This document shows positions 27,632-51,657 of a stretch of 64,000 nucleotides of DNA, in pieces (position 1 is the first letter of the stretch; the number at the start of each line of letters is the position of its first letter). Origin of the DNA: Thermoanaerobaculia bacterium (GTDB taxonomy: Bacteria > Acidobacteriota > Thermoanaerobaculia > UBA5066); NCBI GenBank assembly GCA_038245905.1, contig JBBRRY010000016.1:4955-68954 (forward strand), written 5' to 3'. The notes beneath the pieces were generated by a model. It worked only from the letters and a program-made list of their open reading frames with translations. It did no database searches and had not been told where the DNA came from. The position numbers were made by a program, and so were the translations under genes.

Positions 27632-29353
27632 TCAATTGCGGCCTTTCGTTTCCTGTCGCGTCGGGTCCGTCGTATTCTTCATGGAGATCCCCTTTCTCTC
27701 TGCTTCGCGGAAAGGGGGCGGCGGCTTTCCCTTCGTCTTCTTTCCGCCGAGCTCGCGATCGAAGCCGGGCAGGATCGAACGGAAGAAGGCGTTCTCGACT
27801 AGCTTCAGCGCGATCTGCCATCCGCTCGTGCGGGGACCGTCGATGCGGCCGGAGACGTTCGCGACCGTCGCCACCTCTTTCCGCTCGTGGTTCTTGAGGA
27901 GTCCCGCGACGCCGCCAACGAGCATCTCGTAGGCCTGGCGGAACAACGTCTTGTCCCGGTCCTGCCGCCGGTCATAGACCTTCATTCCCTTGAACAGCGG
28001 CTTGACGTAGCCCTCGAGATTGCCGTCCCGGGCTTTCAGCTCGGTATAGAACGAGAACTCTCCCGCGACAACGTCGAACTTACCGTACGCCCGGAGGAGA
28101 TCGTTCATGCGCGTCATGTCCGTGGCCTCGATCCGGAGATTCAGGTCGAAGTCGGGGCTGGCAGCACCCTCCCGAAACGAGCCGGTGAGCCGGGTGTCTC
28201 CGCTTCCGAGAAACCGCCCGCGCAGGTCGAAATGGGCCCTCGTTCCGGAGGCGTGATTTCCGAGGTCCGAGATCGAGCCGTCGAGCTTGGAAAGGTAGGC
28301 GCGATACGCCGGATCCTTCGTGCGATTCACGAATCCGATCTCGCTCCCCGCGATCACCGCCTTGTCGAGCACGAGCGTCCATTCCGGATTCGACGGAGGC
28401 CGCTTCTTCCCCTTCGCGACCGCCTTAGCGCTCGGGCGCTCGGACGGCGCAACCGGTTCCGCGGAAGCCTTCTTCGCCAGGACATAGTCCAGTCTGACGC
28501 CCGAGAGCGTGAGCGCCGAGAGCCGTGCGTTGCGCACGGACGGGGACGTTTCCATCTCGCCGCCGGCGGCGAGAACCCCGCCCTTGAGGACGAACGCCGT
28601 GTGCGTGAGGACGGGAAGGGAGAGCGCGTCGAGAGGAACCGCGTCGAGGCGGAAGAGGGCGTGAAAGCCGGGGTACGGCTCGGCCAGAAAGTCGGCGTGC
28701 CCGTCGAGAACGCCGCGGCCCGATCCGAAGAGCGTCGCCTCGGCGTGGATGGGCGACGGATAGACCTGGGGCTTCGACTGGACGTTTCGGATGTCGCTCG
28801 CGTGAATCCGGAGCGCGGTCATGCGGATGGGGTGCGCCGGGTCCGCATCGACGTAGGTGATCGTCCCGTCCTCGACGCGAAAGACATCGATCTTGAGCGG
28901 CGTGACCTCCTGCAAGGCCTCCTGCCAGCCACGCTCGTTCACGGGTACGCCGTCCTTCACCTCCTGCCGCAGCTGCACGAGGTTGACGTCGACCCGAGGC
29001 CGCTCCAGGAGGACGTCACCGACGAGATGGCCCGAGAACAGGGCGCGCCAATGAACACTCGTCATCAGGCGGTCGACGAGAAGCACCGGGGGCTCCGGGT
29101 GAGCCTTCTGCCTTACGACGAGCCCCTCGAGGGTCATCGAAAGGGAGAAGAGCCGGAAATGCAGCTTCGGCAAGCGCACCTCGTATCCCTCCAGCCTCTC
29201 GTTCATGCGGCGCTCGATACTGCGCCGCAAGGGCTCGTCGACGAAAAAGGACGCGACGACGATCAGCAAAGTCAGGGCAAGCCAGATCCCGGAGACCCAC
29301 GTCGCGAGGACGGCGGCGCGCCTTTTCTTCGAGCCCGTCACGCCTGGCGTCAA
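27632..29353 (-). CDS. DUF748/AsmA-like membrane-anchored protein
   Basis: An N-terminal TM anchor (AAVLATWVSGIWLALTLLIVVASFF) is followed by a long beta-rich periplasmic domain, a pattern I recognise as DUF748/AsmA-like. It overlaps the downstream AI-2E fragment by 4 nt. Confidence 0.55.
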   Translation of the reverse strand: MTPGVTGSKKRRAAVLATWVSGIWLALTLLIVVASFFVDEPLRRSIERRMNERLEGYEVRLPKLHFRLFSLSMTLEGLVVRQKAHPEPPVLLVDRLMTSVHWRALFSGHLVGDVLLERPRVDVNLVQLRQEVKDGVPVNERGWQEALQEVTPLKIDVFRVEDGTITYVDADPAHPIRMTALRIHASDIRNVQSKPQVYPSPIHAEATLFGSGRGVLDGHADFLAEPYPGFHALFRLDAVPLDALSLPVLTHTAFVLKGGVLAAGGEMETSPSVRNARLSALTLSGVRLDYVLAKKASAEPVAPSERPSAKAVAKGKKRPPSNPEWTLVLDKAVIAGSEIGFVNRTKDPAYRAYLSKLDGSISDLGNHASGTRAHFDLRGRFLGSGDTRLTGSFREGAASPDFDLNLRIEATDMTRMNDLLRAYGKFDVVAGEFSFYTELKARDGNLEGYVKPLFKGMKVYDRRQDRDKTLFRQAYEMLVGGVAGLLKNHERKEVATVANVSGRIDGPRTSGWQIALKLVENAFFRSILPGFDRELGGKKTKGKPPPPFREAERKGISMKNTTDPTRQETKGRN

Positions 29354-29787
29354 GCCGCTGCCGCGGGCTTCTCGCCCTTCATGACGGCGTCGACAGCCGC
29401 CTCCTGCCCTTCCGCGTTCTCGCTCGTCGCGGCCCTAAGGGACGCGTGGTCCTCGACGGCATCGGGATGGAGGTAGTCGTCGAGCCAGTGCTTCTCGACG
29501 ACGGGATACGCCGCGACGAGAGGCAGGGCGAGGATCGCCCCGACGACGCCGTCCAGCATGCCTCCCACCACGATCGCGAGGAGGACCGTGAGCGTGGAAA
29601 TGCGGAGGCGGTTTCCGTAGAGCTTGGGCGTCAAAAGATACGCCTCGAAGAGGTGATAGACGAGGTAGAGGCCCAAAACGATCAGCGCTGTGGACGAGCT
29701 GACCGTGAGCAAGACCAGCGCCGCCGCCGCCATGGCGATGAAGATGCCGGCGACGGGCACGGCGTCGCAGACCCCCGCGACGCTCAA
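29350..29787 (-). pseudogene. C-terminal fragment (about 145 aa) of an AI-2E-family (PerM/YdiK-like) transporter; the N-terminal two-thirds are missing
   Basis: ALIVLGLYLVYHLFEAYLLTPKLYGNRLRISTLTVLLAIVVGGMLDGVVGAILALPLVAAY matches the last three TM helices of AI-2E transporters (the ...QQLEGNxLxPKxxGxxxxLHP... block). Full-length members are about 340 aa, and the bacterioferritin-like gene abuts the 5' side with only a 1-nt gap (29788). Confidence 0.55.
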
Positions 29788-32924: not shown

Positions 32925-33023
32925 CGTCGTCCTCCTGAGGGCTGCACAGCATGAAATGGGCCAGTGCACGCGTCCTGGCGGTTGCGGCATGGCTGTTGCT
33001 CAAGGCTGGCCAGGAGGAAGATC

Positions 33024-33173
33024 ATGCTTTGGACCATCTTCGTGATCCTGCTCGTACTCTGGCTTCTTGGAATGGTGACGTCCTACACGATGGGAGGGTT
33101 CATTCACGTCCTCCTCGTGATCGCGATCGTCGTCGTCCTCATCCAGGTCATTTCGGGCCGCAGAGTCGTGTGA
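33024..33173 (+). CDS. lmo0937-family small membrane protein (49 aa)
   Basis: The ATG at 33024 has aggagg 7 nt upstream. MLWTIFVILLVLWLLGMVTSYTMGGFIHVLLVIAIVVVLIQVISGRRVV follows the family pattern. Confidence 0.7.
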   Translation: MLWTIFVILLVLWLLGMVTSYTMGGFIHVLLVIAIVVVLIQVISGRRVV

Positions 33174-33181
33174 TCGGACGG

Positions 33182-33270
33182 ACGAAGGGACACCTCCGGC
33201 CGCCCCGCAGGACGGCACGGGGTGTCCCTTCGTCCATCAGCCGGCCGCGCCCTCTCGGCCGCGCGGCCGG
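33182..33270. terminator. Two consecutive hairpins between convergent genes: acgaagggacacc...ggtgtcccttcgt (13-bp stem) and ccggccgcgc...gcgcggccgg (10-bp stem)
   Basis: Read directly from the sequence. Probable bidirectional terminators for the lmo0937-like and lipoprotein genes. Confidence 0.45.
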
Positions 33271-33294
33271 CTCTGCCCCCTCGTGGAGCGGTTC

Positions 33295-33750
33295 TCAGCC
33301 TTCGTTCTTGACCGTCACGCGGCGGGCCTTGTCGTCGCCCGTCTGCTCGGTGAGGCGCACGCGAGACCCGACGGCGACAGTCGCGTCGATCGCGACGACC
33401 GTGTCTTTCGCGTCGAGGGCGACCATGTGCGTCTTCTTTTCCGCGGTCATGACCTCGATCTTCTTGCCGGGCTCGTAGAGCGTGACGGTGCCCACGAACG
33501 TTTCGACCTTGCCCGTGACGGTGCCGGCACCGGTGTCGGTCTTCGTCTCCGACTTCGCCTCGAGCGTATTGCCGGCCTGCTTCGACTCCGTGGTCGTCTT
33601 CACTTCGCCCTGTGCGGTCTGCGTCGTCGATTCGGTCTTGCGTTCGACCGTGCCCGGCTCCGTCTTCGAGCACGCGAAGGCCGAGGCCAGAAACGCCCCG
33701 GCCAGGGCACTCACGAGAAAAGAATACCTGCGATTTTGCATGATGTTCAT
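33295..33750 (-). CDS. Small secreted lipoprotein, Thr/Lys/Glu-rich
   Basis: The ATG at 33748-33750 gives MNIMQNRRYSFLVSALAGAFLASAFAC, a signal peptide with a lipobox (AFAC). The longer ORF-track version upstream is an artefact. Confidence 0.6.
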   Translation of the reverse strand: MNIMQNRRYSFLVSALAGAFLASAFACSKTEPGTVERKTESTTQTAQGEVKTTTESKQAGNTLEAKSETKTDTGAGTVTGKVETFVGTVTLYEPGKKIEVMTAEKKTHMVALDAKDTVVAIDATVAVGSRVRLTEQTGDDKARRVTVKNEG

Positions 33751-33802
33751 GCCTCCCCCCGGACAGGAGCAGGGGCCGTGCCAGCAACTCTTTCGGGCGG
33801 CT

Positions 33803-34801
33803 TCAGGCGGCCACGGGCGCGTTCGCGGCGGTCGGTCTCTGCCCACGCTCGGTGCGGATCGTCCGGCTGAAGAGAGAGAGCCGGCGGTCGAAGATGAACT
33901 GCAGGACGAGGCGCGTCCACGAACGGTGGAAGTGCAAGGCTTCGTAGACCTCCGGGACCGACCGGCGAACCGCCGGAAGCCTGTTCCACGGCACGGACGG
34001 AAAATCATGGTGCTCGTTGTGATAGCCCACGTTGAGCGCCGGGACGTTGAGCGGCCCGTAGTAGCTCGTGGTTTCCTGTCCGTCGAAAACGAGGAAGTGC
34101 TCCTGAATCCAGCGCGCCCCGAGAGGGTGGAGGCCCACCGAAAAAAAGAACGAAACCGCGAGATAAAGGAGCGCCTTGGGCCCCAGAACCGCCCAGACGG
34201 CGACGTCGTACGCGAGCTGCACTCCAATGTTCACGAACACCCACGGGGAGAAAAGCGAAATCTCGCGGAGGCGCGGAGGCCGCGTGACCTGAAAAATCGG
34301 GAAGAACAGGAGCCACAGAGCCTTGCGAATGGCCGAGTGGCCGACGAGACGCGCCTCCCACCGGCTCGGAATGTCGGCATCCAGCTCGTAAACGCCCTGA
34401 TAGGCGTGGTGCTTCAGGTGGTACGTCTGGAAGGAGATCGCGCTCGGCAGGACGTGCGGAAGGTTGGCGGCGATCGCGGCGATTTTGTTCCAGCTCGCTC
34501 TTCGGAACAAGAGGTTGTGGGCGCACTCGTGGATGAGGACCCAAAGGGCGTGATCCAGAAACGCTCCGATCGCGAAGGCCGCGGCGAGGCCGGCCCAGAA
34601 CGGAGCACGCCCGAGGGCGGCGGCAAGCGCGGTCTGCGCCAGGACGATTCCGATCACGAGGAGGACGCTCCATGGGTTTCGGCCCGCGAGCCCGCGAATC
34701 TCCGCGTGGTTTCTGAGGATCTCTCTCGCGCGGAGCGCGTGCGGCTCACGCTGGTCGGAGAAGAGAAAGTCCTCGGGACTCGTATTCAGGGTGCTTTTCA
34801 C
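33803..34801 (-). CDS. Sphingolipid delta4-desaturase (DES1 / dihydroceramide desaturase)-like fatty acid desaturase
   Basis: Three His boxes are present: HECAHN, HLKHH and HNEHH. The N-terminal Lipid_DES-like segment FSDQREPHALRAREILRNHAEIRGLAGRNPWSVLLV resembles the eukaryotic DES1 N-terminus (...TDEPHxxRRKEILxKYPEIKxL...). The probable GTG start at 34799-34801 gives about 332 aa. Confidence 0.75.
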   Translation of the reverse strand: MKSTLNTSPEDFLFSDQREPHALRAREILRNHAEIRGLAGRNPWSVLLVIGIVLAQTALAAALGRAPFWAGLAAAFAIGAFLDHALWVLIHECAHNLLFRRASWNKIAAIAANLPHVLPSAISFQTYHLKHHAYQGVYELDADIPSRWEARLVGHSAIRKALWLLFFPIFQVTRPPRLREISLFSPWVFVNIGVQLAYDVAVWAVLGPKALLYLAVSFFFSVGLHPLGARWIQEHFLVFDGQETTSYYGPLNVPALNVGYHNEHHDFPSVPWNRLPAVRRSVPEVYEALHFHRSWTRLVLQFIFDRRLSLFSRTIRTERGQRPTAANAPVAA

Positions 34802-34889
34802 CAGAATCTCCCCACCAGTATCCACGATCCTCCCGCTGATTGAAAACGATTTCCGAGTCCCGAGTGCCGCGGGCTCGGGAACAGCTCCG

Positions 34890-36209
34890 TCAGGTGCCAC
34901 TTCCCTTCAGGACCGTGACGACCGTCCGAAGTAGGATGAAAACGTCCAGGAGCGGCGTCCAATGGAAGAGGTAGCCAAGGTCGTAGCGGAGTTTGACGTC
35001 CGGCTTCGTCGCATAGAGCCCCATCACCTGTGCGAGACCCGTCAGACCCGGCTTGAGGACGTGCCGGAGACGGTAGGCGGGGATCTCCTTCTCGTAGAGC
35101 GCGACGAACTCGGGCCGCTCGGGCCGCGGTCCGATGAGGCTCATCGACCCACCGAGGACGTGGAGAAGCTGCGGCAGCTCGTCGAGCCGCGTCCTCCTGA
35201 GGAGGGCTCCGGCCGGCGTCACGCGCTCGTCGTCCCGGCCCGAGAGTGTGGGACCCGTTTCGGCCTCGGCGTCGGCCCGCATCGTGCGGACCTTCCACAG
35301 CAGAAACTCCCGCCCCCACCGGCCGACCCTGCGCTGGCGGATCCACGGCGCTCCCGGGCTACCGAGCGCGACGGCAAGCGTCACCAGGACGAGAATCGGG
35401 GCAGCGGCGAAGAGCAGAGCCGACCCGAAAACGATGTCGAGAGCGCGTCTCCATGCGAAGGCGAAGAAGCTCGCACCCTGCGTCGCCACGGGCGTGAGGG
35501 GCAGGTCAGCAAGGCTCTTCGTCACCGCCCGCGAGGACACGATGTCCGCGAGACCGGGAAGCACCCAGAGGTCAAAGTCGTTTTCGAGGCTGCGCTCGAG
35601 AAGGGCCACGAGCTTCGGCCGGTCTTCCGGCCGCTCGGACGCAAAGATGACATCTCGCGCACCTTTCAGCTCCTCCAGCGATACATCCTCGCTCCAGCCC
35701 GCGAGCATGTGCCCGGTGATTTGCCCCGCCCTCAAGGCGTCGGCCGCGCGACGCGCGTCGAGGCCCGAGCCGAGCACCAGAACAGCGCGCGTGCCGATCG
35801 GCGCGAGGACGTCGGCCAACGACCGCCAACGCCCAAGCGCGAAGGACAGGAGCGGCACCCAGACGAGGAGCACCGTGCGCGGCACTGCCTGGCCCGCAAA
35901 AAAGTACGCGGCGACAATCAGGCCGCCCGCGACGAGCGCCGACACGAGGAGGCCGCCCCGTTCTCTCACCGATGCGAACGGCTCGTCGTAGGTACCTGCC
36001 AGCCACAGCGCGGCCAGCGTCGCAAAAGCCACGAGGGCGAGCCACGGAATCTCGAGCGAGAGGTTAGAAGCCGGCAGCCTTCCGACCGTGCCCGGCAGCG
36101 CAAGGAGCCGGCGCGCGGTGACGACGAGAGCGAAAAGGCCGGAGGCCACACAGGCGTCGCCCACCGCGAGGAGAAGGCCGCGGCCTTTCCGCCGGCCCCG
36201 CGGCCTCAC
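34890..36209 (-). CDS. Polyprenyl-phosphate sugar transferase (WbaP/EpsB-type initiating glycosylphosphotransferase)
   Basis: N-terminal TM helices are followed by the C-terminal bacterial sugar transferase domain, with RRALDIVFGSALLFAAAPILVLVTLAV, LLWKVRTM, DELPQLLHVLGGSMSLIGPRPE and the C-terminal FILLRTV. Confidence 0.85.
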   Translation of the reverse strand: MRPRGRRKGRGLLLAVGDACVASGLFALVVTARRLLALPGTVGRLPASNLSLEIPWLALVAFATLAALWLAGTYDEPFASVRERGGLLVSALVAGGLIVAAYFFAGQAVPRTVLLVWVPLLSFALGRWRSLADVLAPIGTRAVLVLGSGLDARRAADALRAGQITGHMLAGWSEDVSLEELKGARDVIFASERPEDRPKLVALLERSLENDFDLWVLPGLADIVSSRAVTKSLADLPLTPVATQGASFFAFAWRRALDIVFGSALLFAAAPILVLVTLAVALGSPGAPWIRQRRVGRWGREFLLWKVRTMRADAEAETGPTLSGRDDERVTPAGALLRRTRLDELPQLLHVLGGSMSLIGPRPERPEFVALYEKEIPAYRLRHVLKPGLTGLAQVMGLYATKPDVKLRYDLGYLFHWTPLLDVFILLRTVVTVLKGSGT

Positions 36210-37357
36210 GGACTCCCCCGCGCCGCCCGGTATGCCGCGACGAAGCCGGCGACGGAAGCCCGGCGATCCGCATGCGCCTCGACGAACGCGCGGCCCGCCG
36301 CACCGTCCCGTGCCGCCCGCTCGGGGTCGCCAAGATAGTCCGCGATCGCGCGGGCGAACTCTTCGTCCGTGTCCGCCGTCGCGGCGGGTGGAAGAACGCC
36401 GGACGACGCGGCGCGCAGGACGGCACCGGGCGACGCCACGACGGCCGCGCCCGCCTCGAAGGCCTCGAAGAGCTTGTTGGGTGTGCCCGTCCCGAGGTCC
36501 ACGGGCGCCACGACGACGCGTGCCGTCCGGAGGAAGGCGGCCATATCCGGTACGGGACTCACGACCTCGACGCCGCCCTGTCCCCCCGCCTCACGGATCT
36601 CGCGAGGAGCGTCGGCCCCGCCGAGGAGGAGACGGGCGTCCGGCACCGCGCGCTTCACGCGCGGCCAGATGTCCTCGAGAAGTCGTCGCGCGGCCAAGCG
36701 ATTCGGACGGTACATGAGACGCCCGGTGAAGGCCACGACGGGCCCGCGCCGGGACGGGCCGGCCGGAAGCAGTACGACGCCGTTCGCCACCGCCCGGGTC
36801 CCGGGCGGGAGCCGCGCGGCGTCGGCCGGCGTCGTCCCGAGAAGGACGGCCGCGCCCCGGGCCGCGCGCTCCTCGGCGCGCACGAGGCGCGGCGCGTCGA
36901 GGGCCCAGTAGGCACGTCGCCAAAGCGCGGGATCGTGCCGGGCCGCCTGTCGCGCGGCCGCAGCAAGCGCGTCCACAAAGTCGACGACGAGCGGCGCGTC
37001 CGGCAGCGCTCCCGAGACGTGCGCAAGGAGGCGCGGAAGAAGCAGCGCGACCACGAGGTCGGCGCCTCCCGCCTCTTTCAGCGCTGAGCGGAAATCTCCC
37101 GCGAAGAGCGCCGACTGGAGAGGGTCTCCGGAGAGAAGCGCCCGCACCATGACGAGCGGGACGCGCGCGGGAGAGAGAGCAACCGGCACGACGCGCGCGG
37201 CGAGCGGCACGTCCGGTTTCTCCCGCGGCCCGGCACCTCCGACGATCGTCGTCTCGAACCCGGCTTCGTTGAGCGCCTGGAGGTGGATCTCCGCCCTGAG
37301 CCGATCGCCCGTGAAGCCGGTCCCGGGCAGGCGGGGAACGAGCAGGATCGCTTTCAT
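36206..37357 (-). CDS. Glycosyltransferase family 1 (GT-B)
   Basis: The ATG at 37355-37357 gives MKAILLVPRLPGTG. The C-terminal GT1 motif GTPNKLFEAFEAGAAVVAS is present. It overlaps the upstream GT2 stop (ATGA) and the downstream start by 4 nt. Confidence 0.8.
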   Translation of the reverse strand: MKAILLVPRLPGTGFTGDRLRAEIHLQALNEAGFETTIVGGAGPREKPDVPLAARVVPVALSPARVPLVMVRALLSGDPLQSALFAGDFRSALKEAGGADLVVALLLPRLLAHVSGALPDAPLVVDFVDALAAAARQAARHDPALWRRAYWALDAPRLVRAEERAARGAAVLLGTTPADAARLPPGTRAVANGVVLLPAGPSRRGPVVAFTGRLMYRPNRLAARRLLEDIWPRVKRAVPDARLLLGGADAPREIREAGGQGGVEVVSPVPDMAAFLRTARVVVAPVDLGTGTPNKLFEAFEAGAAVVASPGAVLRAASSGVLPPAATADTDEEFARAIADYLGDPERAARDGAAGRAFVEAHADRRASVAGFVAAYRAARGSP

Positions 37358-38613
37358 GCAGGAGGGCGCGCCCGGTGCCAGCGGGAAGGCGCGAGCAGCG
37401 CGCGAGCGGCGGCGCGTGTCCACATCGAAAAAGACGCCGCGAAATCGGCGAAAGCCACGGGAGGAACTTCCGGTGGATAGCCGAGGCGCCGCCGGAGCGC
37501 GGCGATCGAAAGCCACTCGAGGACGAGGGCGAGTTTTGCTTCGAGTGAAAGAAGGATAAGGAAGGCCAGAAGTGCAACGGGCCGTCCATTCAAAGACAAA
37601 ACCAGCATGAGCACATCCGAGGCGCCCGCAAGAATCGCGAGGGTTCCGAGCAAAAGGACCCTCGGACGAAGCCAGAGATCGGCCGCCAGAACGAACGCGC
37701 CCTTCGGGCTCTTCGCCGCGATCCGGAGGAGATCGCCGAGGCCCGTGAAAAGGAGCTTCATGTGCCCACCCAGCCATCGCGCGCGCGAGCCCGACATCGC
37801 GCGCGAGCCCGGGACTGGTTCGTCGAACGCGACGGGCGCCGCGAGAGCGCGGACGCGCACTCCCGACGCCAGGAGCCGGAGGGTCGCTTCGGAGTCCTCG
37901 ACGGTCGTCGCGGTAGCCACGGCCGGCCCGGCGTGAAACGCCCGCGGCGAGAAACCCATGGCCTTACCGCGCAGCCGGACGGGCAGGCCTTCGGCATCCC
38001 GCGCAAGGTCGTCCTCCAGGGCCTGGGCGAGAGAGAGCGCCTCGACGCGCGGCGCGCCCGAGGCGGGGACTCCCGCGGGCCGGACCGGAAGCTGGAACGC
38101 CTCTGTCCCGACGGGCACGGCGAGATCGCGGAAAAATCGTTCCGGCAGCCTCATGTCGGCGTCGAACACAAGGATGAAGTCGTAGGCATCCAGCCGGTCG
38201 CCCATGCTCGCGGCGAGAAACGCAAGCGCATGTCCTTTCGCAGGACCGGGAAGATTCTTCGAAAGGTAAGAGATTCCGTCGCGCGCAAGACGGGCCTGCG
38301 CCTCGGGGTCCGGACCGTCCAGGAGGACCAGAATGTCGACGGCAAAGGAGCTTGCGCTCGCCTCTGCGCCGCCCGCGATCTTCACCTTCGAAGAAATCTC
38401 TTTCTCCGACTCTCTCGTCACGTCCGCGGCGATGTCGCCGACGCGCGCGCCCTCGGCGCGAGCCGGCACGAGCACGAGCAGGCGTGCCGGACGCATGCCC
38501 CGCTCCGGCGCGCCGCGCCCTCGCACGAGGCGCCGCAGCCTCAGGGCCGCGTCGAGCGCGGGCAGCGCTGCCGCGAGGGCCAGCAGGCCGCAGAGGACCG
38601 TCGCCTTATCCAC
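37354..38613 (-). CDS. Membrane glycosyltransferase family 2 (synthase-like, with a C-terminal TM bundle)
   Basis: An N-terminal TM segment, the DxD motif in FILVFDADMRLPERF, and a C-terminal polytopic region (AFVLAADLWLRPRVLLLGTLAILAGASDVLMLVLSL...) are present. Confidence 0.75.
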   Translation of the reverse strand: MDKATVLCGLLALAAALPALDAALRLRRLVRGRGAPERGMRPARLLVLVPARAEGARVGDIAADVTRESEKEISSKVKIAGGAEASASSFAVDILVLLDGPDPEAQARLARDGISYLSKNLPGPAKGHALAFLAASMGDRLDAYDFILVFDADMRLPERFFRDLAVPVGTEAFQLPVRPAGVPASGAPRVEALSLAQALEDDLARDAEGLPVRLRGKAMGFSPRAFHAGPAVATATTVEDSEATLRLLASGVRVRALAAPVAFDEPVPGSRAMSGSRARWLGGHMKLLFTGLGDLLRIAAKSPKGAFVLAADLWLRPRVLLLGTLAILAGASDVLMLVLSLNGRPVALLAFLILLSLEAKLALVLEWLSIAALRRRLGYPPEVPPVAFADFAASFSMWTRAAARALLAPSRWHRARPPA

Positions 38614-38638: not shown

Positions 38639-40954
38639 TCAGCGGGTCGTGCGCGACTGTGCGTCCACCACGCCGAATGCGGCCATGTTCACGATGTCGA
38701 CCACCTCGACTCCGCGCTGGAGGACATGAACGGGCTTGCCCATTCCCATGAGGATCGGCCCGATCGCATCCGCCTTGGCGAGACGCCACACGAGCTTGTA
38801 GGCGGCGTTCGCGCTCTGGAGCTCCGGAAAGACGAGGACGTTCGCCGGGCCCGTGAGGCCCGCCCACGGGTACTCCTCCTTCAGGAACTCGGGAAGAACC
38901 GCCGTATCGGCCTGCATCTCGCCGTCACATTCGAGCGCCGGCCGGCGCTTCTTCACGATTTTCACGGCCTCCCGGACTTTGTCCGTCGAAGGGTGCTTCG
39001 TCGAGCCGAAGTTCGAGAACGAGATCATCGCGACGCGCGGCTGGACACCGAAGAGCTTCGCCGTGTCGGCCGACAAAAGCGCGATCTCCGCCAGATCCTC
39101 CGCGCTGGGCTCGATGTTGACTGTCGTGTCGGCGAAGAAGAACGTCCGGTCCTGCAGGATCAGGACGTAGAGGCCCGAAACCTTCTTGACGCCGTCCTTG
39201 ACGCCGATCGTCTGGAGGGCCGGCTTGATCGTCTCCGGGTAATAGGTCGTGAGGCCGGAGAGCGAGACGTCCGCGTCGCCCTGGTCGACCATCATGCCGG
39301 CGAAGTAGTTCCGGATTCGCATGTAGGTCTGGGCGTCCTCGAGGGTGACGCCGTGGCGCTTCCTCTTCTCGACGAAGGCCTTCGCGTACTTCTGGAAGTT
39401 CGGGTGCGTTTCCGGGTCGATCACCTCGATCGGCGCCTTGACATCGAGCGCCTTCAGGGCCGCCTCGGCCTTCCTCCCGCGCGAGAGGAGGATCGGGATC
39501 GCGATCTTCTCCTCGGCGAGGATCTTGGCGGCGCGTTGGACCTTCGGGTGATCCCCTTCGGCGAGGACGACGCGCTTGGGGTCGCTTTTCGCCTTGCCGT
39601 GGATGACCTGCATGAAGGACCGCGAACGTGACAGCATGCCCTCGAGCCTCTGGCGGTAGGCGTCCATGTCCTTGATGGGCCGCTTGGCCACTCCCGTCGC
39701 CGCGGCCGCCTCGGCTACCGCCGGTGCGACGTGCAAGAGCACGCGCCAGTCGAAAGGCTTCGGAATCAGGTACTCGCGTCCGAACTTGAAGCCGTCGACG
39801 CCATAGGCGCGGGCTACGGAATCGGGCACGTCCTCCTTGGCGAGATTCGCGAGCGCCTTCGACGCGGCGAGCTTCATCGCCTCGTTGATCTGCGTCGCGC
39901 GGCAATCGAGTGCGCCGCGGAAGATGAACGGGAAGCCCAGCACGTTGTTGACCTGATTGGGGTAGTCGGACCGGCCCGTCGCCATGATGACGTCGGGACG
40001 CGCGGCCTTCGCCTCCTCCGGGCTGATCTCCGGCACCGGGTTCGCCATGGCGAAGATGATCGGGTCCTTCGCCATCTTCTTGATCATCTCTCCGTTGATG
40101 AGCTTCGCTGCCGAGACGCCGATGAAAGCGTCTGCGCCCTCGAGCGCCTCGGCAACCGTGCGCTTTTTCGTGTCGCGCGCGAAGCGCTCCTTGTATTGAT
40201 TCATGTTCTCGGTCCGGCCCTTCCAGATCACGCCGGTCCGGTCGACCATGAGGATATTCTCGAGCTTCACGCCATACGTGATGTAAAGGTTCGCGCACGC
40301 GTTCGCGGCGGCGCCCGCGCCGGCGAAGACGACTTTCACGTCTTCGATCTTCTTCTTCGCGATCTCGAGGGCGTTCAGGAACGCCGCGGCCGAAATGATC
40401 GCGGTCCCGTGCTGGTCGTCGTGAAAGACCGGGATGCCCATGCGCTTCTTGAGCTGCCCCTCGATGTAGAAGCACTCGGGCGCCTTGATGTCCTCGAGAT
40501 TGATGCCTCCGAACGTGGGCTCGAGGCGTGCGACGCACTCGATGAACTTGTCGGGGTCCTTCTCGTCCACTTCGATGTCGAACACGTCGACGTCGGCGAA
40601 CCTCTTGAACAGCACGCCCTTCCCTTCCATGACGGGCTTGCCGGCGAGAGGACCGATGTCTCCGAGACCGAGCACGGCCGTGCCGTTGGAGATGACGGCG
40701 ACGAGATTTCCCTTGCCCGTGTACTCGTAGGCAAGGTCGGGGTCCCGCGCGATTTCGAGGCACGGCTCGGCGACGCCGGGCGTGTATGCGAGGGAGAGGT
40801 CGCGGGCGGTGGCGCAAGGCTTGGAAGGAATGACCTCCAGCTTTCCCTTGCGGCCGGTGGAGTGATAGTCGAGGGCGTCCTGCTTGGAAAGGCTCACGCG
40901 TGTTCCTTTCGTCGATCCGCCGACGATTCTAGAACTCTCCTTCCGGGCCCGCAT
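38639..40954 (-). CDS. maeB: NADP-dependent malic enzyme (malic enzyme plus phosphotransacetylase-like domain, MaeB type)
   Basis: [42 protein letters not shown] and [15 protein letters not shown] (NAD(P)-binding) are followed by a C-terminal PTA-like domain of about 330 aa. Total length is 771 aa. Confidence 0.9.
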
Positions 40955-41882: not shown

Positions 41883-42680
41883 TCAGGCGGCCCGAACGAA
41901 GAGGATCTTCACCGCCGCGGCAGCGAGAGCGAGGCCGAGCGCGATCAGCGCCCACGTCGACAGTGCCGGGACTGGACTCGAGCCGAGCGGGCTGGGGGCC
42001 GCGAGGTAGGCAATGAGGTTGTTCGAGAACGCCTGCGAAGCCGCGTCGGCACTCGGATCCAGGAAGTTCACGTCGAAGACGAGAATCAAGGCACCCGCGG
42101 CCGCGCCGGAGAGCGTCCCGGGAGACCACACGAGCGACGCTCCGAAGTTCGAGCCGTCCTTCGTCACGTACGCGCCGGTCCCTGTCGTCGGGGAGGCGGC
42201 GGCGGCGAGGAACGTGACGGTCGCGACCGCATTCGGGCCCGTGAAGGGGGATTGAACGGTCTGCGCCTGGCTCACCGGGTTCACTGCCGTGATCGCACCG
42301 CCGCCGGCCGTCGAGACGAGGCTGATGATCGAGTTGTTGCGGGTCGGGAAACCGGTGTTTTCGCCCATCACGAAGAGCGACCCGCCGCCGGCCATGAACG
42401 TGACGTAGGCCGAGATGTCGCTCCCGGTGAGCGGCGTCGTGTTGTTGAACCGGATGTCCCAGATCTGCTTGTACGTCGCGAGGCTGCCCCCGGGAACACC
42501 CACGCTCGGGGTCACGGTATACGTGGCCGCGGCGAGCTTACCCGTCAGGTTCCCGAGAACGTTGGCCTCGAGGCCGGCCGTGCCGTCGTGAACGATCAGC
42601 GCGTTGGCGGCCAGGCCGACACCTGGCGCAGAGAGAAGGAGGGCGACCAACGCCCGGGTGAGCATGGACCGTATACTCAT
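41883..42680 (-). CDS. Secreted protein with a C-terminal IPTL-CTERM-like sorting tail
   Basis: The N-terminal signal peptide is MLTRALVALLLSAPGVGLAA. The C-terminus SPVPALSTWALIALGLALAAAAVKILFVRAA has a P-x-L-S-x-W motif plus a TM helix and a short basic tail, as in IPTL-CTERM (exosortase-family) sorting signals. Confidence 0.6.
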   Translation of the reverse strand: MSIRSMLTRALVALLLSAPGVGLAANALIVHDGTAGLEANVLGNLTGKLAAATYTVTPSVGVPGGSLATYKQIWDIRFNNTTPLTGSDISAYVTFMAGGGSLFVMGENTGFPTRNNSIISLVSTAGGGAITAVNPVSQAQTVQSPFTGPNAVATVTFLAAAASPTTGTGAYVTKDGSNFGASLVWSPGTLSGAAAGALILVFDVNFLDPSADAASQAFSNNLIAYLAAPSPLGSSPVPALSTWALIALGLALAAAAVKILFVRAA

Positions 42681-45415: not shown

Positions 45416-46738
45416 ATGGACGTGGCCCCTTTTTTCCAGTCGGCCGAAAAGAGCGATGCGGGTCTTTCGGCGCTCGCCCGCGGTGTCGTCGGCTCGGAGA
45501 TTCTCCGTATCGCCGGCGAGATCCGCGCGATGCAGGCAAAAGGCCGGCCCGTGTGCAACCTGACGATCGGCGATTTCGATCCGAAGCACTTCCCGATTCC
45601 GCAGCGTCTCCTCGACGGCACACGCGCGGCTCTCGAGACCGGGCAGACGAATTACCCGCCGGCGGAGGGCATCCTGCCGCTTCGTGAAGCCGTCGTGCGC
45701 TTGTACGAGCGGGATCTCGGACTGACGTATCCCGTCGACTCCGTCGTCATCGCGGCCGGAGCCCGTCCGCTTCTCTACGGAGCGTACCGGACGCTCGTGG
45801 ATCCAGGCGACACGACGATTTATCCCGTCCCGACCTGGAACAACAACCACTATGCCTATCTGTCGGGCGCGCACGGGATCGCCGTGCCCGTGACGAAAGA
45901 ATCGAACTTTTTCCCGACGCCTGACCAGCTGCATCCCCACCTCTCCTCGGCGCGGCTCCTCATCCTCAACTCGCCGCTCAACCCAACCGGTACCGTCATC
46001 TCCCGAAGCGCCCTCACCGCGATCACGGAAATGGTCGTGGAGGAGAACCGGCGGCGCGAGAAGGTGGGCGGCAAGCCGCTCTACTTTGTATACGACCAGG
46101 TCTACTGGACTCTCACGTTCGGCGGGGCCGAGCACCACACGCCTGTCGAGGTCGTGAGGGAGAGCGCCCCGTACGTGATCTTTCTCGACGCGATCTCGAA
46201 GGCTTTTTGCGCGACCGGGATGCGCGTCGGCTGGGGTGTCATGCCACCCGCCATTCGCAAGCGCATGTCCGACATCCTCGGGCACATCGGCGCCTGGGCG
46301 CCGAAGGCGGAGCAGGTGGGTGTCGCGGCCCTCCTCGACGACCCTGAGGCTGTCGGCGCGCATCGCGAGTCCGTGCGTCGGAAGCTCGCCGAGCGGCTCG
46401 AGGCCCTCTACGCCGGCGTCATGGCGATGAAGAAGGACGGCTTTCCGGTCGACGCGATCGAGCCGCAGGGGGCTATTTACCTCTCGGCGCGGTTCGACCT
46501 CTTCGGACGGACCGTGAAGGGCGCCCTCGTTCGGACGAACGAGGACGTCCGGCGCCTTCTCCTCGAGGAGGCGGGGCTAGGCGTCGTGCCTTTCGGGGCC
46601 TTCGGCTTCGCGGGCGACACCGGCTGGTTCCGCCTGTCGGTGGGCGCGGTTTCGATGGGCGACATCGCCAATGTCTTTCCGCGGCTGCGGGCCCTTCTCG
46701 CTCAGGCTCCGGCGGTCCGGGCGTCCGCCGTGCGCTGA
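45416..46738 (+). CDS. PLP-dependent aminotransferase class I/II (aspartate/aromatic aminotransferase-like)
   Basis: The fold-type I pattern is present, with the PLP-lysine motif SKAFCATGMRVGW and NYPPAEG. Length is 440 aa. Confidence 0.8.
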   Translation: MDVAPFFQSAEKSDAGLSALARGVVGSEILRIAGEIRAMQAKGRPVCNLTIGDFDPKHFPIPQRLLDGTRAALETGQTNYPPAEGILPLREAVVRLYERDLGLTYPVDSVVIAAGARPLLYGAYRTLVDPGDTTIYPVPTWNNNHYAYLSGAHGIAVPVTKESNFFPTPDQLHPHLSSARLLILNSPLNPTGTVISRSALTAITEMVVEENRRREKVGGKPLYFVYDQVYWTLTFGGAEHHTPVEVVRESAPYVIFLDAISKAFCATGMRVGWGVMPPAIRKRMSDILGHIGAWAPKAEQVGVAALLDDPEAVGAHRESVRRKLAERLEALYAGVMAMKKDGFPVDAIEPQGAIYLSARFDLFGRTVKGALVRTNEDVRRLLLEEAGLGVVPFGAFGFAGDTGWFRLSVGAVSMGDIANVFPRLRALLAQAPAVRASAVR

Positions 46739-47433: not shown

Positions 47434-48299
47434 GCTCCCCGCTCGCCGCCCAGGAAGCGCCTCAGCAGCGGCCAGTAGACCTCGGGCTTCTCGAGGTAGA
47501 CGACGTGGCCTGCGCCCGCGATCTCCTCGTATCGAGCGTGCGGGATCACGGACAGGATCTTCCGCTGCTGCGCCGGTGGAATCGTGCGGTCCTCGGCGCC
47601 TGCGAGAACGAGGACGGGGCACGGGATCGCGGCGAAGCTTGCCGCCTTCTCCTCGAGCGCCGCGAAGAACGGGTCCTGCGCCTCCGTGAGACGCACGAGC
47701 GCTTCGATGCGGCCGACGTAACGGTCGTGGAAGCCCTTGCGCATCGTTTCGAGCTTCTCGCCCACGCGCGCGACGAACTCCTCGCCGAAGATCTTCTCGT
47801 AGAGGTACCGCGTGTAGAGGTCGAAGAGCGGCTGGCCGCCCGCGTAGAAGCGCAGCGAGAGGTCCTGGTACATCGAGAAGAGCGTCTCTTTCGTCAGGAG
47901 GATTCCCGAGAGCGCCAGCGTGCGGACGCGCGCCGGGTGGCGCCGGGCGAACTCGGCCGCGACGAACCCTCCATACGAGACGCCGACCGCGTGCACGTTC
48001 GCGATCCCGGCCGCATCGAGGATCCCAGCAAGCGCGTCGCCGAAGACGGAGATCGGAGCGTCCGGCAGCGCCGCGTCGTCCGAAGCGCCCTGTCCCAGGT
48101 AGTCGTATAGGAGGACGTCGTGGTCCCCCGTCAGCTCGGGGAGAAACGAGATCCAGCTCTTCGTGGACATCGCGAGGCCGTTGAAGAGACAGACGGTCTC
48201 CCGCGCCCCCGTGCCCCAAAGCTCCCAGTAGTAGCCATGGCCCGCGTGGACCAGCCAGCCCTCCCGGAGCGGCGCAGAGGCGGGCGGGGTTGCGTTCAT
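47430..48299 (-). CDS. Alpha/beta-hydrolase fold protein (1)
   Basis: The nucleophile elbow HAVGVSYGGFVA (GxSxG), HG-like LFNGLAMS and C-terminal AGHVVYLEKPE (catalytic His region) are present. The ATG at 48297-48299 overlaps the next gene (ATGA). Confidence 0.8.
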   Translation of the reverse strand: MNATPPASAPLREGWLVHAGHGYYWELWGTGARETVCLFNGLAMSTKSWISFLPELTGDHDVLLYDYLGQGASDDAALPDAPISVFGDALAGILDAAGIANVHAVGVSYGGFVAAEFARRHPARVRTLALSGILLTKETLFSMYQDLSLRFYAGGQPLFDLYTRYLYEKIFGEEFVARVGEKLETMRKGFHDRYVGRIEALVRLTEAQDPFFAALEEKAASFAAIPCPVLVLAGAEDRTIPPAQQRKILSVIPHARYEEIAGAGHVVYLEKPEVYWPLLRRFLGGERGA

Positions 48300-49099
48300 G
48301 CGGCCCCCGCGGCGCGGCGCACGCGCTCGAGGAAGCGCTCGGCGAGGAGGACGAACTCGTCTTCCCTCTCGACGATCAGCGCGTGACCCGCGCCCTGCAC
48401 GACGACGAGACTCGCGCCGGGAATCGCGACCGCGACGGCCTCGGTCCGCTCGAGAGGCATTGCGGCGTCCCGGCCCGCGGCGACGACGAGAACCGGGCAG
48501 GCGATCTTCGGGAGAACGGGCCTGAGGTCGACCTTCGTGAGCGCCCCAAGGAGGCCCTCGAGGCCCGTAAACCAGGCCTCCGGCAGGAGACCAACCTGGG
48601 CACGCCGGGCCGCGATCTCCTCGGCGTGCGCGGTCTGCCACTCGGGTGTGTAGGCGAGATGCACGATCGCGTCGTAAACGGCCGTTCGGTCGCCGCCCTT
48701 CGAGACGGCGCGGACGGCGTGTGCGAGCCGCATGCCAGCCTCGCCGAGCCCCTCGTGCGCCACGTCCGTGACGGTCACCGCGAGAACGGACCCGACGAGC
48801 TCCGGATGGCGTGCCGCGAGGAGGAGTCCGACGTAGGCGCCGTAAGACGCCGCGACAACGTCGACTCGCGCTTCTCCCAGCGAGTCGAGGAGAGCCGCGA
48901 CGTCGTCCGCGTGCTCTTCCATGGAGGCGCGCGGCGGCCCCGGCGAGAGAAGCTGGCCTCTGAAGTCGCAGCGGATGACGTGGTGCCGCGCCGCGAGACG
49001 CCGCGCGACCGGCTCCCACGCGGAGAGCGACATCATCCCGCCGTTGAGGAGTAACAGCGGCGGACCCTCGCCGTCGACGCGGTGGGTCAGCATGCTCAT
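48296..49099 (-). CDS. Alpha/beta-hydrolase fold protein (2)
   Basis: LLLNGGMMS, VVAASYGAYVG (AxSxG elbow) and GAGHALIVE are present. The start and the upstream stop form a TGATG junction. Confidence 0.8.
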   Translation of the reverse strand: MSMLTHRVDGEGPPLLLLNGGMMSLSAWEPVARRLAARHHVIRCDFRGQLLSPGPPRASMEEHADDVAALLDSLGEARVDVVAASYGAYVGLLLAARHPELVGSVLAVTVTDVAHEGLGEAGMRLAHAVRAVSKGGDRTAVYDAIVHLAYTPEWQTAHAEEIAARRAQVGLLPEAWFTGLEGLLGALTKVDLRPVLPKIACPVLVVAAGRDAAMPLERTEAVAVAIPGASLVVVQGAGHALIVEREDEFVLLAERFLERVRRAAGAA

Positions 49100-50676
49100 C
49101 AGGAAGAAGAAGATTTCTTTGAAAGGTAAAGAGAGCGGAGGTCGCCCTTCACCACTTTGCCGTATGCGGTGCGCGGCAGGGCGTCGACGAAGAGGAATTC
49201 GCGCGGAACCTTATACTTCGCGAGGCGCCGCTCGACGAACGCCGCCAGTTCGGCCTTCTCTTCCTCTTCCCCTCTTACCTTCAAAGAAATCTTCTCTTCT
49301 CTTGCTCTCTCTCTTCGAACGACGAACGCCACCCCGACCTCGCCCCACTTCGCGTCCGGGACGCCGACGACCGCGACGTCCTTCACGCCCGGGTGCTGGA
49401 AGAGCACGCCTTCGATCTCTGCCGGATACACGTTGACACCGCCCGAGATGAGCATGTCTTTCTTGCGGCCGGCGATCGTGAAGAAGCCGTCGGCGTCCTT
49501 CTTCGCGAGATCGCCCGTGTGGAACCAGCCGTCCTCGTCGAGCGCGGCGGCCGTCGCGTCGGCGTTGCGGTAGTAGCCCGCACAGACGTGCGGCCCGCGC
49601 AGCAGCAGCTCGCCGATTTCGCCCACCGGCACCTCGCCTCCGTCCTCGCCGACGAGGCGCGCCCGGGTGAACATCATCGGTCGCCCGATCGATCCGGCCT
49701 TCCGGACGGAGTCCTCGAGGCTCATCGCGAAGCAGTTCACGCCGACCTCCGTGAGGCCGTAGCCCTGCTTGAAGTTCGCGCCGCGTTTGTGCCACGTCTC
49801 GATGATGTCCAGGGGAAGCGGCGCGCCCCCGCTGACGAAGTAGCGGACGCTCGAGAAATCCGCGGACGAGAACGCCGGGTGCTCCTGCAGCATCCGAAAG
49901 ATCGTCGGGACGCCGAGGACGACCGTACAGCGCTCTCTTGCGATCGCGGCGAAGATCTCCTCAGGGTCGAACCCGGCGAAGAGGACGATCGTCCCGCCCA
50001 CCGCGAGGATCGGCGTGAGGAACGCCCCGAGGCCGCCGGCGTGGTAGAGCGGCGTATAGATGGGCGACACGTCGTCCTCGCGCAGCTGCCACGAGACGAC
50101 CGTGTTCACCGCGTTCCACGCGACCATCCGGTGCGGCACCATCACACCCTTCGGCTTGCCCGTGGTGCCGGAGGTGTAGAGGAGGCAGTAGAGATCCTCC
50201 GGATCGGGAGAAGAGAAGATTTCCTTGAAGGTGGTGCGAGCGGCCGGCGCGCCCCCGGGCACCGCACGATGCGGCGCCAGAGCGTCGAGAGGCACGGCCC
50301 TCACCCCTGGACACCTTCTAAGAAGATCTTCAACGGTCTCGTCGAACGTCGCCCCGAAAATCAGCGCCCGCGGCTCGGCGTCCGAAACCACACTCTCCAG
50401 CTCCCCCGCCGTCTGCCGCGTGTTGAGCGGGACAAAAACGACACCGCTCTTGCCGCAAGCAAAGAAGACGTCCAGGAACTCGACGCAGTTGCCCGCGAGG
50501 AGAGCCAGGCGGTCGCCCTTCTTGAGGCCGAGGCCTTCCGTGAGGGTACGCGCGGCCGCCTGCGCCCGGGCGTCCAGCTCGGCGTACGTGAACCTGCGCC
50601 CGGTCGAGATTTCGACGAGTGCTGTCTTCTCCGGCGAGAGCCGCGCGCGCTCGCCGAGTATGTCGCCCCTGATCAT
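49099..50676 (-). CDS. AMP-dependent synthetase/ligase (acyl-CoA synthetase family, OleC/FadD-like)
   Basis: The AMP-binding motif LLYTSGTTGKPKGV, YGLTE, the GEIGELLLRGPHVCAGYY region and a C-terminal lysine-containing tail are present. The ATG at 50674-50676 overlaps the upstream hydrolase stop (ATGA). Confidence 0.85.
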   Translation of the reverse strand: MIRGDILGERARLSPEKTALVEISTGRRFTYAELDARAQAAARTLTEGLGLKKGDRLALLAGNCVEFLDVFFACGKSGVVFVPLNTRQTAGELESVVSDAEPRALIFGATFDETVEDLLRRCPGVRAVPLDALAPHRAVPGGAPAARTTFKEIFSSPDPEDLYCLLYTSGTTGKPKGVMVPHRMVAWNAVNTVVSWQLREDDVSPIYTPLYHAGGLGAFLTPILAVGGTIVLFAGFDPEEIFAAIARERCTVVLGVPTIFRMLQEHPAFSSADFSSVRYFVSGGAPLPLDIIETWHKRGANFKQGYGLTEVGVNCFAMSLEDSVRKAGSIGRPMMFTRARLVGEDGGEVPVGEIGELLLRGPHVCAGYYRNADATAAALDEDGWFHTGDLAKKDADGFFTIAGRKKDMLISGGVNVYPAEIEGVLFQHPGVKDVAVVGVPDAKWGEVGVAFVVRRERAREEKISLKVRGEEEEKAELAAFVERRLAKYKVPREFLFVDALPRTAYGKVVKGDLRSLYLSKKSSSS

Positions 50677-51641
50677 GGCCGGATGACCGCCGCAGGGGCC
50701 GGCGCGACAACCGGCGGCGACGAAACCGTCGGAGCCGGAAGTGGGTCGACAAGGACCTTCATGAGCGCCTCGGCGAAGCGGTCGGCGCACTCGACCTGCG
50801 GGGCATGGCCGCAGCGCTCGATCGTCGTGAGCCGTGCAGCGGGAAGTTGCGCGGCGAGGCGGCGGGCGTAGTCGACGGAAACCATTCTGTCCGACGCACC
50901 CCAGAGGAGATCCGCGGGAACGTCGAAGCCGCCGAGCTTTCCGTCAAGGAGGTAGGCGATCAGGTTCTTCGGCTCCACCGCGAGACGGGCGATCGGACCA
51001 GTCGCCGCGACACGGATGATGTCGTCGACGACGAAGTCGGGGATCATCGGGGCCGACGGATCGCGCAGCGCGGCAAGCGTCCGGTCCGCCTCGGCGCGCG
51101 TCTTCGGCTGGAGCGTGAGGTCAGGCCGGTCGCCGAGGAGCGGGCCGCCGTTCACGAGGACGAGGTGCTGGACCCTCTCGGGATGCTCCTTCGCCCACAC
51201 CGTCGCGACCCACGCGCCGAGCGAGTTTCCGACGAGCGTGACCTTGCCCTGCGGGAGCTCCTTCATGGCGCCGTCGAAGCCCGCGAGGAGCGTCGCGAAC
51301 GGAATCGGTCCGGCGGCCGGCGCGCTGTCTCCGTGCCCCGCGAGGTCCGGGATGACGACGAGGAAGCTTTTCGCGACTCGCGGCGCGACTTTCGCCCAGC
51401 CGCCGGCCTGGTCGCCGGCACCATGGACGAGGACCACGGGCGCGCCGCGGCCTCCGGAGAACACGCGCTGCGGCCCCACGGCCGATGTCTGAAAATGCTT
51501 CTCGAAGCCGGAAAAGGAGAGCCGGCGGCGGCCGAGCCACGCGAGCGTGGCGAGGGGCCTCTTCCAGAAGATCGCCCCCGCCGCCACTCCGAGAAGGAGG
51601 AGAGCGGCGGCGAGGACGAGGACGATCTTCACCGGGCGCCG
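50673..51641 (-). CDS. Alpha/beta-hydrolase fold protein (3) with an N-terminal TM/signal segment
   Basis: VVLVHGAGD, LVGNSLGAWVA (GxSxG) and ERCGHAPQVE (His) are present. The N-terminal hydrophobic segment is KIVLVLAAALLLLGVAAGAIFW. Confidence 0.75.
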   Translation of the reverse strand, partial: RRPVKIVLVLAAALLLLGVAAGAIFWKRPLATLAWLGRRRLSFSGFEKHFQTSAVGPQRVFSGGRGAPVVLVHGAGDQAGGWAKVAPRVAKSFLVVIPDLAGHGDSAPAAGPIPFATLLAGFDGAMKELPQGKVTLVGNSLGAWVATVWAKEHPERVQHLVLVNGGPLLGDRPDLTLQPKTRAEADRTLAALRDPSAPMIPDFVVDDIIRVAATGPIARLAVEPKNLIAYLLDGKLGGFDVPADLLWGASDRMVSVDYARRLAAQLPAARLTTIERCGHAPQVECADRFAEALMKVLVDPLPAPTVSSPPVVAPAPAAVIRP

Positions 51642-51657
51642 CACGGTGCCCCGGAGC

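Follow-up and report, generated by a model that had tools for sequence, protein, structure and literature searches.

A DES1/DEGS-family desaturase gene behind exopolysaccharide-type genes in a Thermoanaerobaculia bacterium: family, substrate and gene order

What would a lipid desaturase resembling the eukaryotic DES1 be doing in a soil acidobacterium, and does its place beside genes for an exopolysaccharide (EPS)-type glycan say anything about its substrate? The question is raised by a gene at positions 33803-34801, here called DES, in a 64-kb stretch of DNA from a Thermoanaerobaculia bacterium (contig JBBRRY010000016.1, assembly GCA_038245905.1; G+C about 67%), the whole of which is referred to below as the window. 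A sequence-only reading had taken DES for a eukaryote-type sphingolipid delta4-desaturase at the head of a glycan assembly cluster and had proposed that the two work together. In the analysis presented here, the protein belongs securely to the DES1/DEGS family, a functional link to the glycan genes is not supported, and close homologues stand beside ceramide-type gene modules in Gemmatimonadota. The preferred reading, to which a probability of roughly 0.6 is given, is that DES may be a stand-alone desaturase or hydroxylase of the DES1 type acting on a sphingoid-type lipid for which the biosynthetic genes lie at other places in the genome.

Family membership and distribution

The gene is encoded by the minus strand, where translation starts at GTG (34801) and ends at TGA (33805-33803), and the following features were read from the intact open reading frame (ORF), its translation and Pfam scans (aa, amino acids):

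33803..34801, minus: DES1/DEGS-family membrane desaturase gene, 332 aa
34670..34777, minus: Lipid_DES N-terminal domain, residues 9-44 (PF08557)
33929..34600, minus: FA_desaturase catalytic domain, residues 68-291 (PF00487)
34514..34531, minus: first histidine box HECAHN, residues 91-96; H91, H95 and N96 invariant
34406..34420, minus: second histidine box HLKHH, residues 128-132; H128, K130, H131 and H132 invariant
34007..34021, minus: third histidine box HNEHH, residues 261-265; H261 to H265 invariant

The three boxes, already recognised in DES1 order from the letters alone, are all present and give the pattern HX4H, HX2HH and HX2HH of DES1/DEGS enzymes. The N-terminal segment had likewise been assigned to DES1/DEGS rather than to DesA/OLE1 or CrtW types, and the profile search proposed as a check bears this out: Lipid_DES matches with 37.9 bits, where its gathering score is 23, over profile positions 2-37 of 37, and FA_desaturase reaches 89.1 bits (E 5e-25; cut-off 29.7), values well outside what chance would give. 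The opposite outcome, a generic desaturase or ketolase as best match in a protein lacking Lipid_DES, was looked for and does not apply. In an alignment of 18 homologues 114 columns are invariant, every histidine of the three boxes among them, and a homologue 95% identical and equal in length was found by protein search; an exact look-up of the window protein in an assembly index gave no record. The alignment with animal DES1 is colinear and full length at 36-37% identity: a nematode (Gnathostoma) protein named 'sphingolipid 4-desaturase' in UniRef is 36% identical over DES residues 10-316 (E 1.5e-59), and human DEGS1, used as a secondary check only, shows 37% identity in an alignment of 317 aa that has 4 gaps. 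Membership in the DES1/DEGS family is secure.

Eukaryotic DES1/DEGS1 thus shares with the window protein the same two domains and the same three boxes in the same order, whereas DES resides in a bacterial host, has no cytochrome b5 partner identified, and acts on a substrate that is putative. The bifunctional C4-hydroxylase/delta4-desaturase DES2/DEGS2 belongs to the same family, and the two activities are not separable for DES from its sequence. A PDB sequence search with DES gave no match, and there is therefore no solved DES1 structure. An AlphaFold model built from 18 sequences is of moderate confidence (pLDDT 68, pTM 0.74); its Foldseek matches in the PDB, to chains of the Ycf2/Orf2971-FtsHi complex (E 3e-4) and to AlkB (E 0.3), are only distant membrane di-iron relatives and say nothing about substrate.

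The label 'eukaryote-type' is misleading. The family is widespread across bacteria, so that DES is not a rare eukaryote-like acquisition: counted at one genome per species, relatives occur in at least 576 species-level bacterial genomes of seven or more phyla. The protein search with DES returned 5530 clusters (90% identity) among 8000 candidates scored, and an exhaustive search of 50%-identity representatives gave 420 clusters at E<=1e-30. Carriers include Thermoanaerobaculia and other Acidobacteriota, Gemmatimonadota, Ignavibacteria, Planctomycetaceae, Turneriella and Dadabacteria, and many are Bacteroidota (Chitinophagaceae such as Chitinophaga, Cytophagales, Mucilaginibacter), a phylum in which some members make sphingolipids and sulfonolipids, which speaks for a sphingoid substrate. 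Cultured carriers include Chitinophaga japonensis DSM 13484, Mucilaginibacter hurinus, Chryseosolibacter histidini and a Gemmatimonas strain. Both Pfam domains are present in nearly all of the best 120 homologues. JGI annotation labels many homologues sphingolipid delta-4 desaturase and some 'sphingolipid 4-desaturase/C4-monooxygenase', and NCBI annotation calls them 'fatty acid desaturase' only.

Ceramide-type modules and the question of substrate

On the preferred reading DES would be a di-iron membrane enzyme of the DES1/DEGS type that uses O2 to introduce either a 4,5 double bond or a hydroxyl at C4, adjacent to the C3 hydroxyl, in an N-acylated sphingoid-type base. Dihydroceramide or something closely analogous to it would serve as the substrate, supplied by genes elsewhere in the genome. 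Evidence was sought by scanning every ORF of 88 DES loci and of the window with seed proteins, namely E. coli Kbl for alpha-oxoamine synthases (AOS) and, from E. coli O111, YghO, the fatty acyl-AMP ligase (FAAL), the epimerase, the acyl carrier protein (ACP) and Spt. The O111 genes are homologues of the Caulobacter genes needed for dihydroceramide, and YghO is the homologue of CC_1154, required for dihydroceramide formation (PMC9386255).

Among the 88 loci only one, from a Gemmatimonas metagenome-assembled genome (L047), has Spt/YghO/CerR-type genes near DES; the others have none within 10 kb of DES. With contigs added from elsewhere, four Gemmatimonas-type contigs carry a ceramide-type module beside a convergent DES gene, and the module comprises a short-chain dehydrogenase/reductase (SDR; Epi/CerR-like), a FAAL-ACP-AOS protein of about 1100 aa in which AasR, AcpR and Spt are fused, and a YghO/bCerS homologue. 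The predicted (glyco)ceramide clusters are:

L090:10001-20936
L091:7760-16511
L047:5974-16423
L124:5089-15165

The DES proteins of these contigs are 58-61% identical to that of the window, and this linkage is the best available support, of an indirect kind, for a ceramide-type substrate of the DES family, its member in the window included. In L090, a Gemmatimonas contig, DES is convergent to, and 2 bp from, an operon encoding two Glyco_transf_21 proteins, a Wzi-like protein, an epimerase/3-beta-hydroxysteroid-dehydrogenase-type SDR and a FAAL-ACP-aminotransferase fusion of 1118 aa; the product of the final gene of the operon, 377 aa long, aligns with E. coli YghO from end to end at 35% identity (E 1e-67). 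Glyco_transf_21 (GT21) is the ceramide glucosyltransferase family, with two genes in L090 and one in L091. Taken together with GT21, the complete set of genes beside DES is present in L090 and L091, and in part in L047 and L124. The best solved relative of the AOS domain of the fusion is Sphingobacterium serine palmitoyltransferase (208.7 bits, against about 190 for BioF and Kbl). What stands beside these homologues is thus a fused version of the Caulobacter/E. coli ceramide pathway (Spt, AcpR, AasR, Epi/CerR and CC_1154/YghO, that is, bCerS), none of whose genes is in the window; in those Caulobacter and E. coli papers on it that were searched for the word 'desaturase', no DES-type gene came up.

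How regular the linkage is could be gauged from a metagenome scan with the fusion, which yielded 80 loci (L091-L170), with an SDR in 47, a YghO-like gene in 39 and DES in 2, these being L091 and L124. At least 2 kb beyond the YghO-like gene was available in 26 fusion loci, so that DES is present in 2 of the 26 with enough flank. Linkage of DES to the module is on this count occasional, which fits an accessory tailoring enzyme. The fusion itself is abundant, with 427 confirmed metagenome stretches and protein matches at E<=1e-50 that run into thousands. Its source labels include Gemmatimonadota, Phycisphaerae, Sedimentisphaerales, Lentisphaerae and Deferrisomatales, SDR and YghO-like neighbours are its usual company, and JGI annotation knows it only as 8-amino-7-oxononanoate synthase. 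In protein searches with the fusion the top 120 hits were from Gemmatimonadota, or from Planctomycetota, Lentisphaerae and Deferrisomatales, none being labelled Acidobacteriota, and in the literature no report of sphingolipids in Gemmatimonas or Gemmatimonadota was found. In loci from three other Acidobacteriota genomes the gene that directly follows DES, in convergent orientation, encodes an AMP-binding, acyl-CoA-ligase-type enzyme some 630 aa long (L016:11664-13484, L017:11510-13402, L020:1789-3732); these enzymes are only weakly similar to the sphingolipid-specific AasR.

Several results weigh against a ceramide-type substrate in this organism. The seed scan detected no Spt, bCerS/YghO or CerR-type gene in the window, in agreement with the earlier statement that no spt or ceramide synthase gene is visible there, and no sphingoid-base genes near DES in any Acidobacteriota locus scanned. 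DES accompanies the fusion, as just described, in few of the loci where it could have been seen. Literature searches turned up neither an experimental study of any bacterial member of the family nor a description of sphingolipids from Acidobacteriota. The aminotransferase at 45416-46738 (440 aa), considered as a hidden Spt, was rejected, as it is of the aspartate-aminotransferase type and not an alpha-oxoamine synthase. On the other side, Spt-like proteins have been reported in 38 bacterial phyla (Black Sea study), and an unlinked pathway in this organism is therefore plausible, if unproven; PMC11334938, in a passage quoting Stankeviciute 2022, describes sphingolipid genes as unclustered in several producers.

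The main rival, improbable but to be taken seriously, holds that this DES1-family enzyme acts in Acidobacteriota on a lipid other than a sphingolipid (for instance an alkyl or acyl chain, or some other hydroxy lipid with an amide linkage). Its role would then be to adapt the cell to stress or to adjust membrane fluidity, in the manner of regulated acyl-lipid desaturases. The missing sphingoid-base genes and the silence of the literature on Acidobacteriota count in its favour, as do the gene neighbourhoods. In contigs of the close clade DES keeps company with a response regulator, a CHASE3 histidine kinase and stress genes for superoxide dismutase (SOD) and ferritin; in other lineages its neighbours vary (an AraC regulator, a DEAD-box helicase, an acyl-CoA ligase, the E1 component of branched-chain ketoacid dehydrogenase, ABC efflux genes), and clustering of all ORFs from the 88 DES loci revealed no universal neighbour family. 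The Bacillus membrane desaturase Des is under two-component control by DesK-DesR. DES of the close relatives, flanked by regulator and kinase genes, resembles that arrangement; it differs in belonging to another desaturase family, in having a sigma54-type promoter motif after DES, before a lipoprotein gene, and in that the regulator is absent from the window. Against this rival, the 58-61% identity to module-linked DES genes and the full conservation of the family-specific Lipid_DES N-domain together argue for the same substrate class, and the dispersal of sphingolipid genes in several producers, cited above, blunts the lack of linked genes.

Gene order around the desaturase

Whether the glycan genes bear on the function of DES depends on how the locus is arranged. 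In transcription order the features are:

38639..40954, minus: malic enzyme
37354..38613, minus: divergent GT2-type glycosyltransferase (GT2), 419 aa; Glyco_trans_2_3 at 27.2 bits, weak and at threshold
36206..37357, minus: GT1/GT4-type glycosyltransferase (GT1), 383 aa; Pfam Glyco_trans_1_4 at 66.3 bits
34890..36209, minus: polyprenyl glycosylphosphotransferase (PGT), WbaP/WcaJ-like, upstream of DES; Bac_transf at 180.8 bits
34817..34845, minus: promoter-like element TTTCAA-17 nt-GATACT in the 88-bp gap between PGT and DES, from alignment with relatives
33768..33783, minus: sigma54-type promoter motif TGGCACGGCCCCTGCT (TGGCAC-N5-CTGCT), from a regular-expression scan, between the DES stop codon and the lipoprotein gene
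33295..33750, minus: small lipoprotein gene downstream of DES, 151 aa, with a signal peptide ending ...SAFAC in its sequence

The sequence-only reading was correct in naming the three glycan genes and in placing them on the same strand as DES. The PGT also scores 300.5 bits against TIGR03025 (cut-off 295.55), and the GT1 orthologue in the related contig L006 is likewise 383 aa long. The sequence-only reading erred in setting DES at the head of the cluster: because the minus strand encodes all of these genes, they are read in the order malic enzyme, GT2, GT1, PGT, DES and lipoprotein, with SOD and ferritin genes further down, and DES is downstream of the glycan genes, at the tail. Overlaps of 4 bp couple GT2 to GT1 (ATGA) and GT1 to PGT (GTGA), whereas DES is set 88 bp beyond PGT and is not translationally coupled to them.

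On the preferred reading, most transcription of DES would start within the 88-bp gap, at a promoter belonging to the gene itself. The candidate is the element TTTCAA-17 nt-GATACT, followed by a purine-rich stretch and then the DES start codon; it aligns clearly in the window and in seven of the nine relatives compared (L009 has a degenerate form, and L013 does not align) and is kept also where a regulator gene, and not PGT, precedes DES. A scan with the sigma70 consensus gave no promoter above threshold, this element included, and the promoter is accordingly given here as putative. No terminator is predicted between PGT and DES, terminator-like matches being at chance level and inside genes, so that read-through from the glycosyltransferase operon is possible, a point that tells against reliance on a separate promoter. 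A sigma54 interpretation of the motif upstream of DES was rejected for its variable spacing and missing -12 GC. The sigma54-type motif that follows DES recurs at the same place in seven relative sequences (L003/L004, L006, L001/L012, L008 and L010), most of which carry, just upstream of DES, a gene for an NtrC-type activator that is absent from the window. Homologues of the lipoprotein directly follow DES in L001-L006 and L012. A Pfam/NCBIfam scan of 33104-33787 in another reading frame gave no match, the lipoprotein frame itself lying outside that scan.

Comparison with relatives is more telling. The closest species-level genome among the matches listed, from an uncultured Thermoanaerobaculia bacterium (Acidobacteriota), has a DES protein 93% identical to that of the window, in DNA that is 86-90% identical and colinear around it. 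Direct PGT-DES adjacency is found only in the window and in the related contigs L009 and L013. In L003, L006, L008, L010 and L014 the two genes stand 1.5-2.9 kb apart and the interval holds a gene for an NtrC-type (sigma54-activator) response regulator, which thus splits PGT from DES in five of the eight other clade contigs carrying the glycosyltransferase genes; in L011 and L012 no such cluster adjoins DES. Colinearity of the related contigs extends over prolyl-tRNA synthetase (ProRS), malic enzyme, SOD, ferritin and other unrelated genes, and the PGT-DES adjacency is for that reason best regarded as part of the general gene order in close relatives. Beyond this clade, homologues of PGT, GT1 and GT2 occur within 10 kb of DES in none of 74 loci from other lineages, and they are confined to 10 sequences of the one clade. 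About 2.2 kb of L003 (90% DNA identity), holding a 237-aa gene and the sigma54-type response regulator, has no counterpart at window positions 34866-34879; L009 and L013 share the short form, and the absence of this stretch brings PGT and DES together in the window.

The proposal that DES works with PGT, GT1 and GT2, making either a glycosylated sphingolipid or a desaturated lipid carrier of the glycan, is quite unlikely in the face of these observations. What recommends it is the shared strand, the short distance of 88 bp with no predicted terminator, the recurrence of direct adjacency in L009 and L013, and the fact that DES of L090 adjoins genes of the ceramide glucosyltransferase family. 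However, DES is last in the order, uncoupled where the three glycosyltransferase genes are coupled, and preceded by a conserved motif of its own; a regulator intervenes in five relatives, the cluster does not stand beside DES in two more, the association is lacking in all loci from other lineages, and the synteny that keeps it within the clade also keeps ProRS, malic enzyme, SOD and ferritin. The chemistry does not favour it either, since PGTs of the Bac_transf family prime glycans on polyprenyl phosphate rather than on ceramide. No GT21-type transferase stands beside DES in the window, and the window GT2 is without similarity to the L090 GT21 proteins (E<1e-4), the glycosyltransferase genes of the window being of another type. 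They fit the EPS/O-antigen-type clusters primed by WbaP/WcaJ-family PGTs, but the link to DES is not conserved here, and such clusters are not, to our knowledge, in need of a DES1-type desaturase. A functional link of DES to glycan assembly genes is not supported. The position of DES behind the GT2-GT1-PGT genes would, on the preferred reading, be an order inherited within one Thermoanaerobaculia clade, with no shared pathway. A more specific version, in which loss of the regulator fused DES to the PGT-GT1-GT2 operon and the four genes jointly make a glycan-bearing, 4-unsaturated sphingolipid-type envelope lipid, has an equally slim prospect; were it true, that lipid would represent a new kind of glycolipid anchor in Acidobacteriota.

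Weakest of all, and effectively refuted, is the notion that the gene is decaying, or that its shared motifs have put the wrong label on a carotenoid ketolase or a generic fatty-acid desaturase: it can point to the bare NCBI name of the homologues and to a short local CrtW match around the third histidine box, but it falls because CrtW (31.2 bits against a cut-off of 350), DesB (13.6 against 500) and DesA (11.7 against 500) are all far below threshold where Lipid_DES is above it, and because the ORF is intact and its invariant columns, with every box histidine, are in place.

Some other features of the window may be recorded. An ORF for an AI-2E family transporter (29350-29787, minus; 145 aa) matches only the last third of the Pfam profile and is probably a truncated gene; its L006 orthologue has 380 aa, and about 670 bp of L006 is without counterpart in the window. 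A 265-aa protein at 41883-42680 (minus) has weak C-terminal matches to the IPTL-CTERM and 'midcut-by-XrtH' sorting signals, and GT1 and PGT show partial matches to glycosyltransferase models of the PEP-CTERM/XrtA system, which together hint at an exosortase-linked EPS system. A small hydrophobic ORF at 32964-33173 (plus) is the counterpart of 49-50-aa DUF5670 genes at the same place in L001, L006 and L008. Finally, a run of lipid-type genes at 48296-53414 (minus) comprises two alpha/beta hydrolases, an AMP-dependent ligase, a FabH-like ketoacyl-ACP synthase III and a FabG-like SDR; no alpha-oxoamine synthase is in the run, and a TonB-type outer-membrane barrel follows it.

Bacterial DES1 orthologues and the eukaryotic enzyme

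DES of the window is an ordinary member of a family that is already known and that automatic annotation has named, and its neighbourhood tells little about its substrate. The wider interest comes mainly from what bacterial DES1 orthologues do. A recent review counts DEGS1 among the early eukaryotic inventions (2026; PMC12993136), and bacterial ceramide synthesis has been described in published work as convergent, the eukaryotic upstream enzymes not being homologous to bacterial bCerS and CerR according to the passages of PMC11087976 and PMC11334938 that cite Stankeviciute 2022. It is somewhat short of an even chance, though close to it, that the bacterial DES1 orthologues are genuine dihydroceramide desaturases, in which case bacteria and eukaryotes would have the desaturation step in common through descent or transfer, whereas the CerS and KDSR steps are convergent. 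Given that a full-length DES1 orthologue is present in hundreds of bacterial species, and that some Gemmatimonadota have it beside a complete ceramide-type module, two questions are raised: whether bacteria with a DES1-type enzyme make sphingosine-type (4-unsaturated) or phyto-type ceramides, and from where the eukaryotic DES1 originated.

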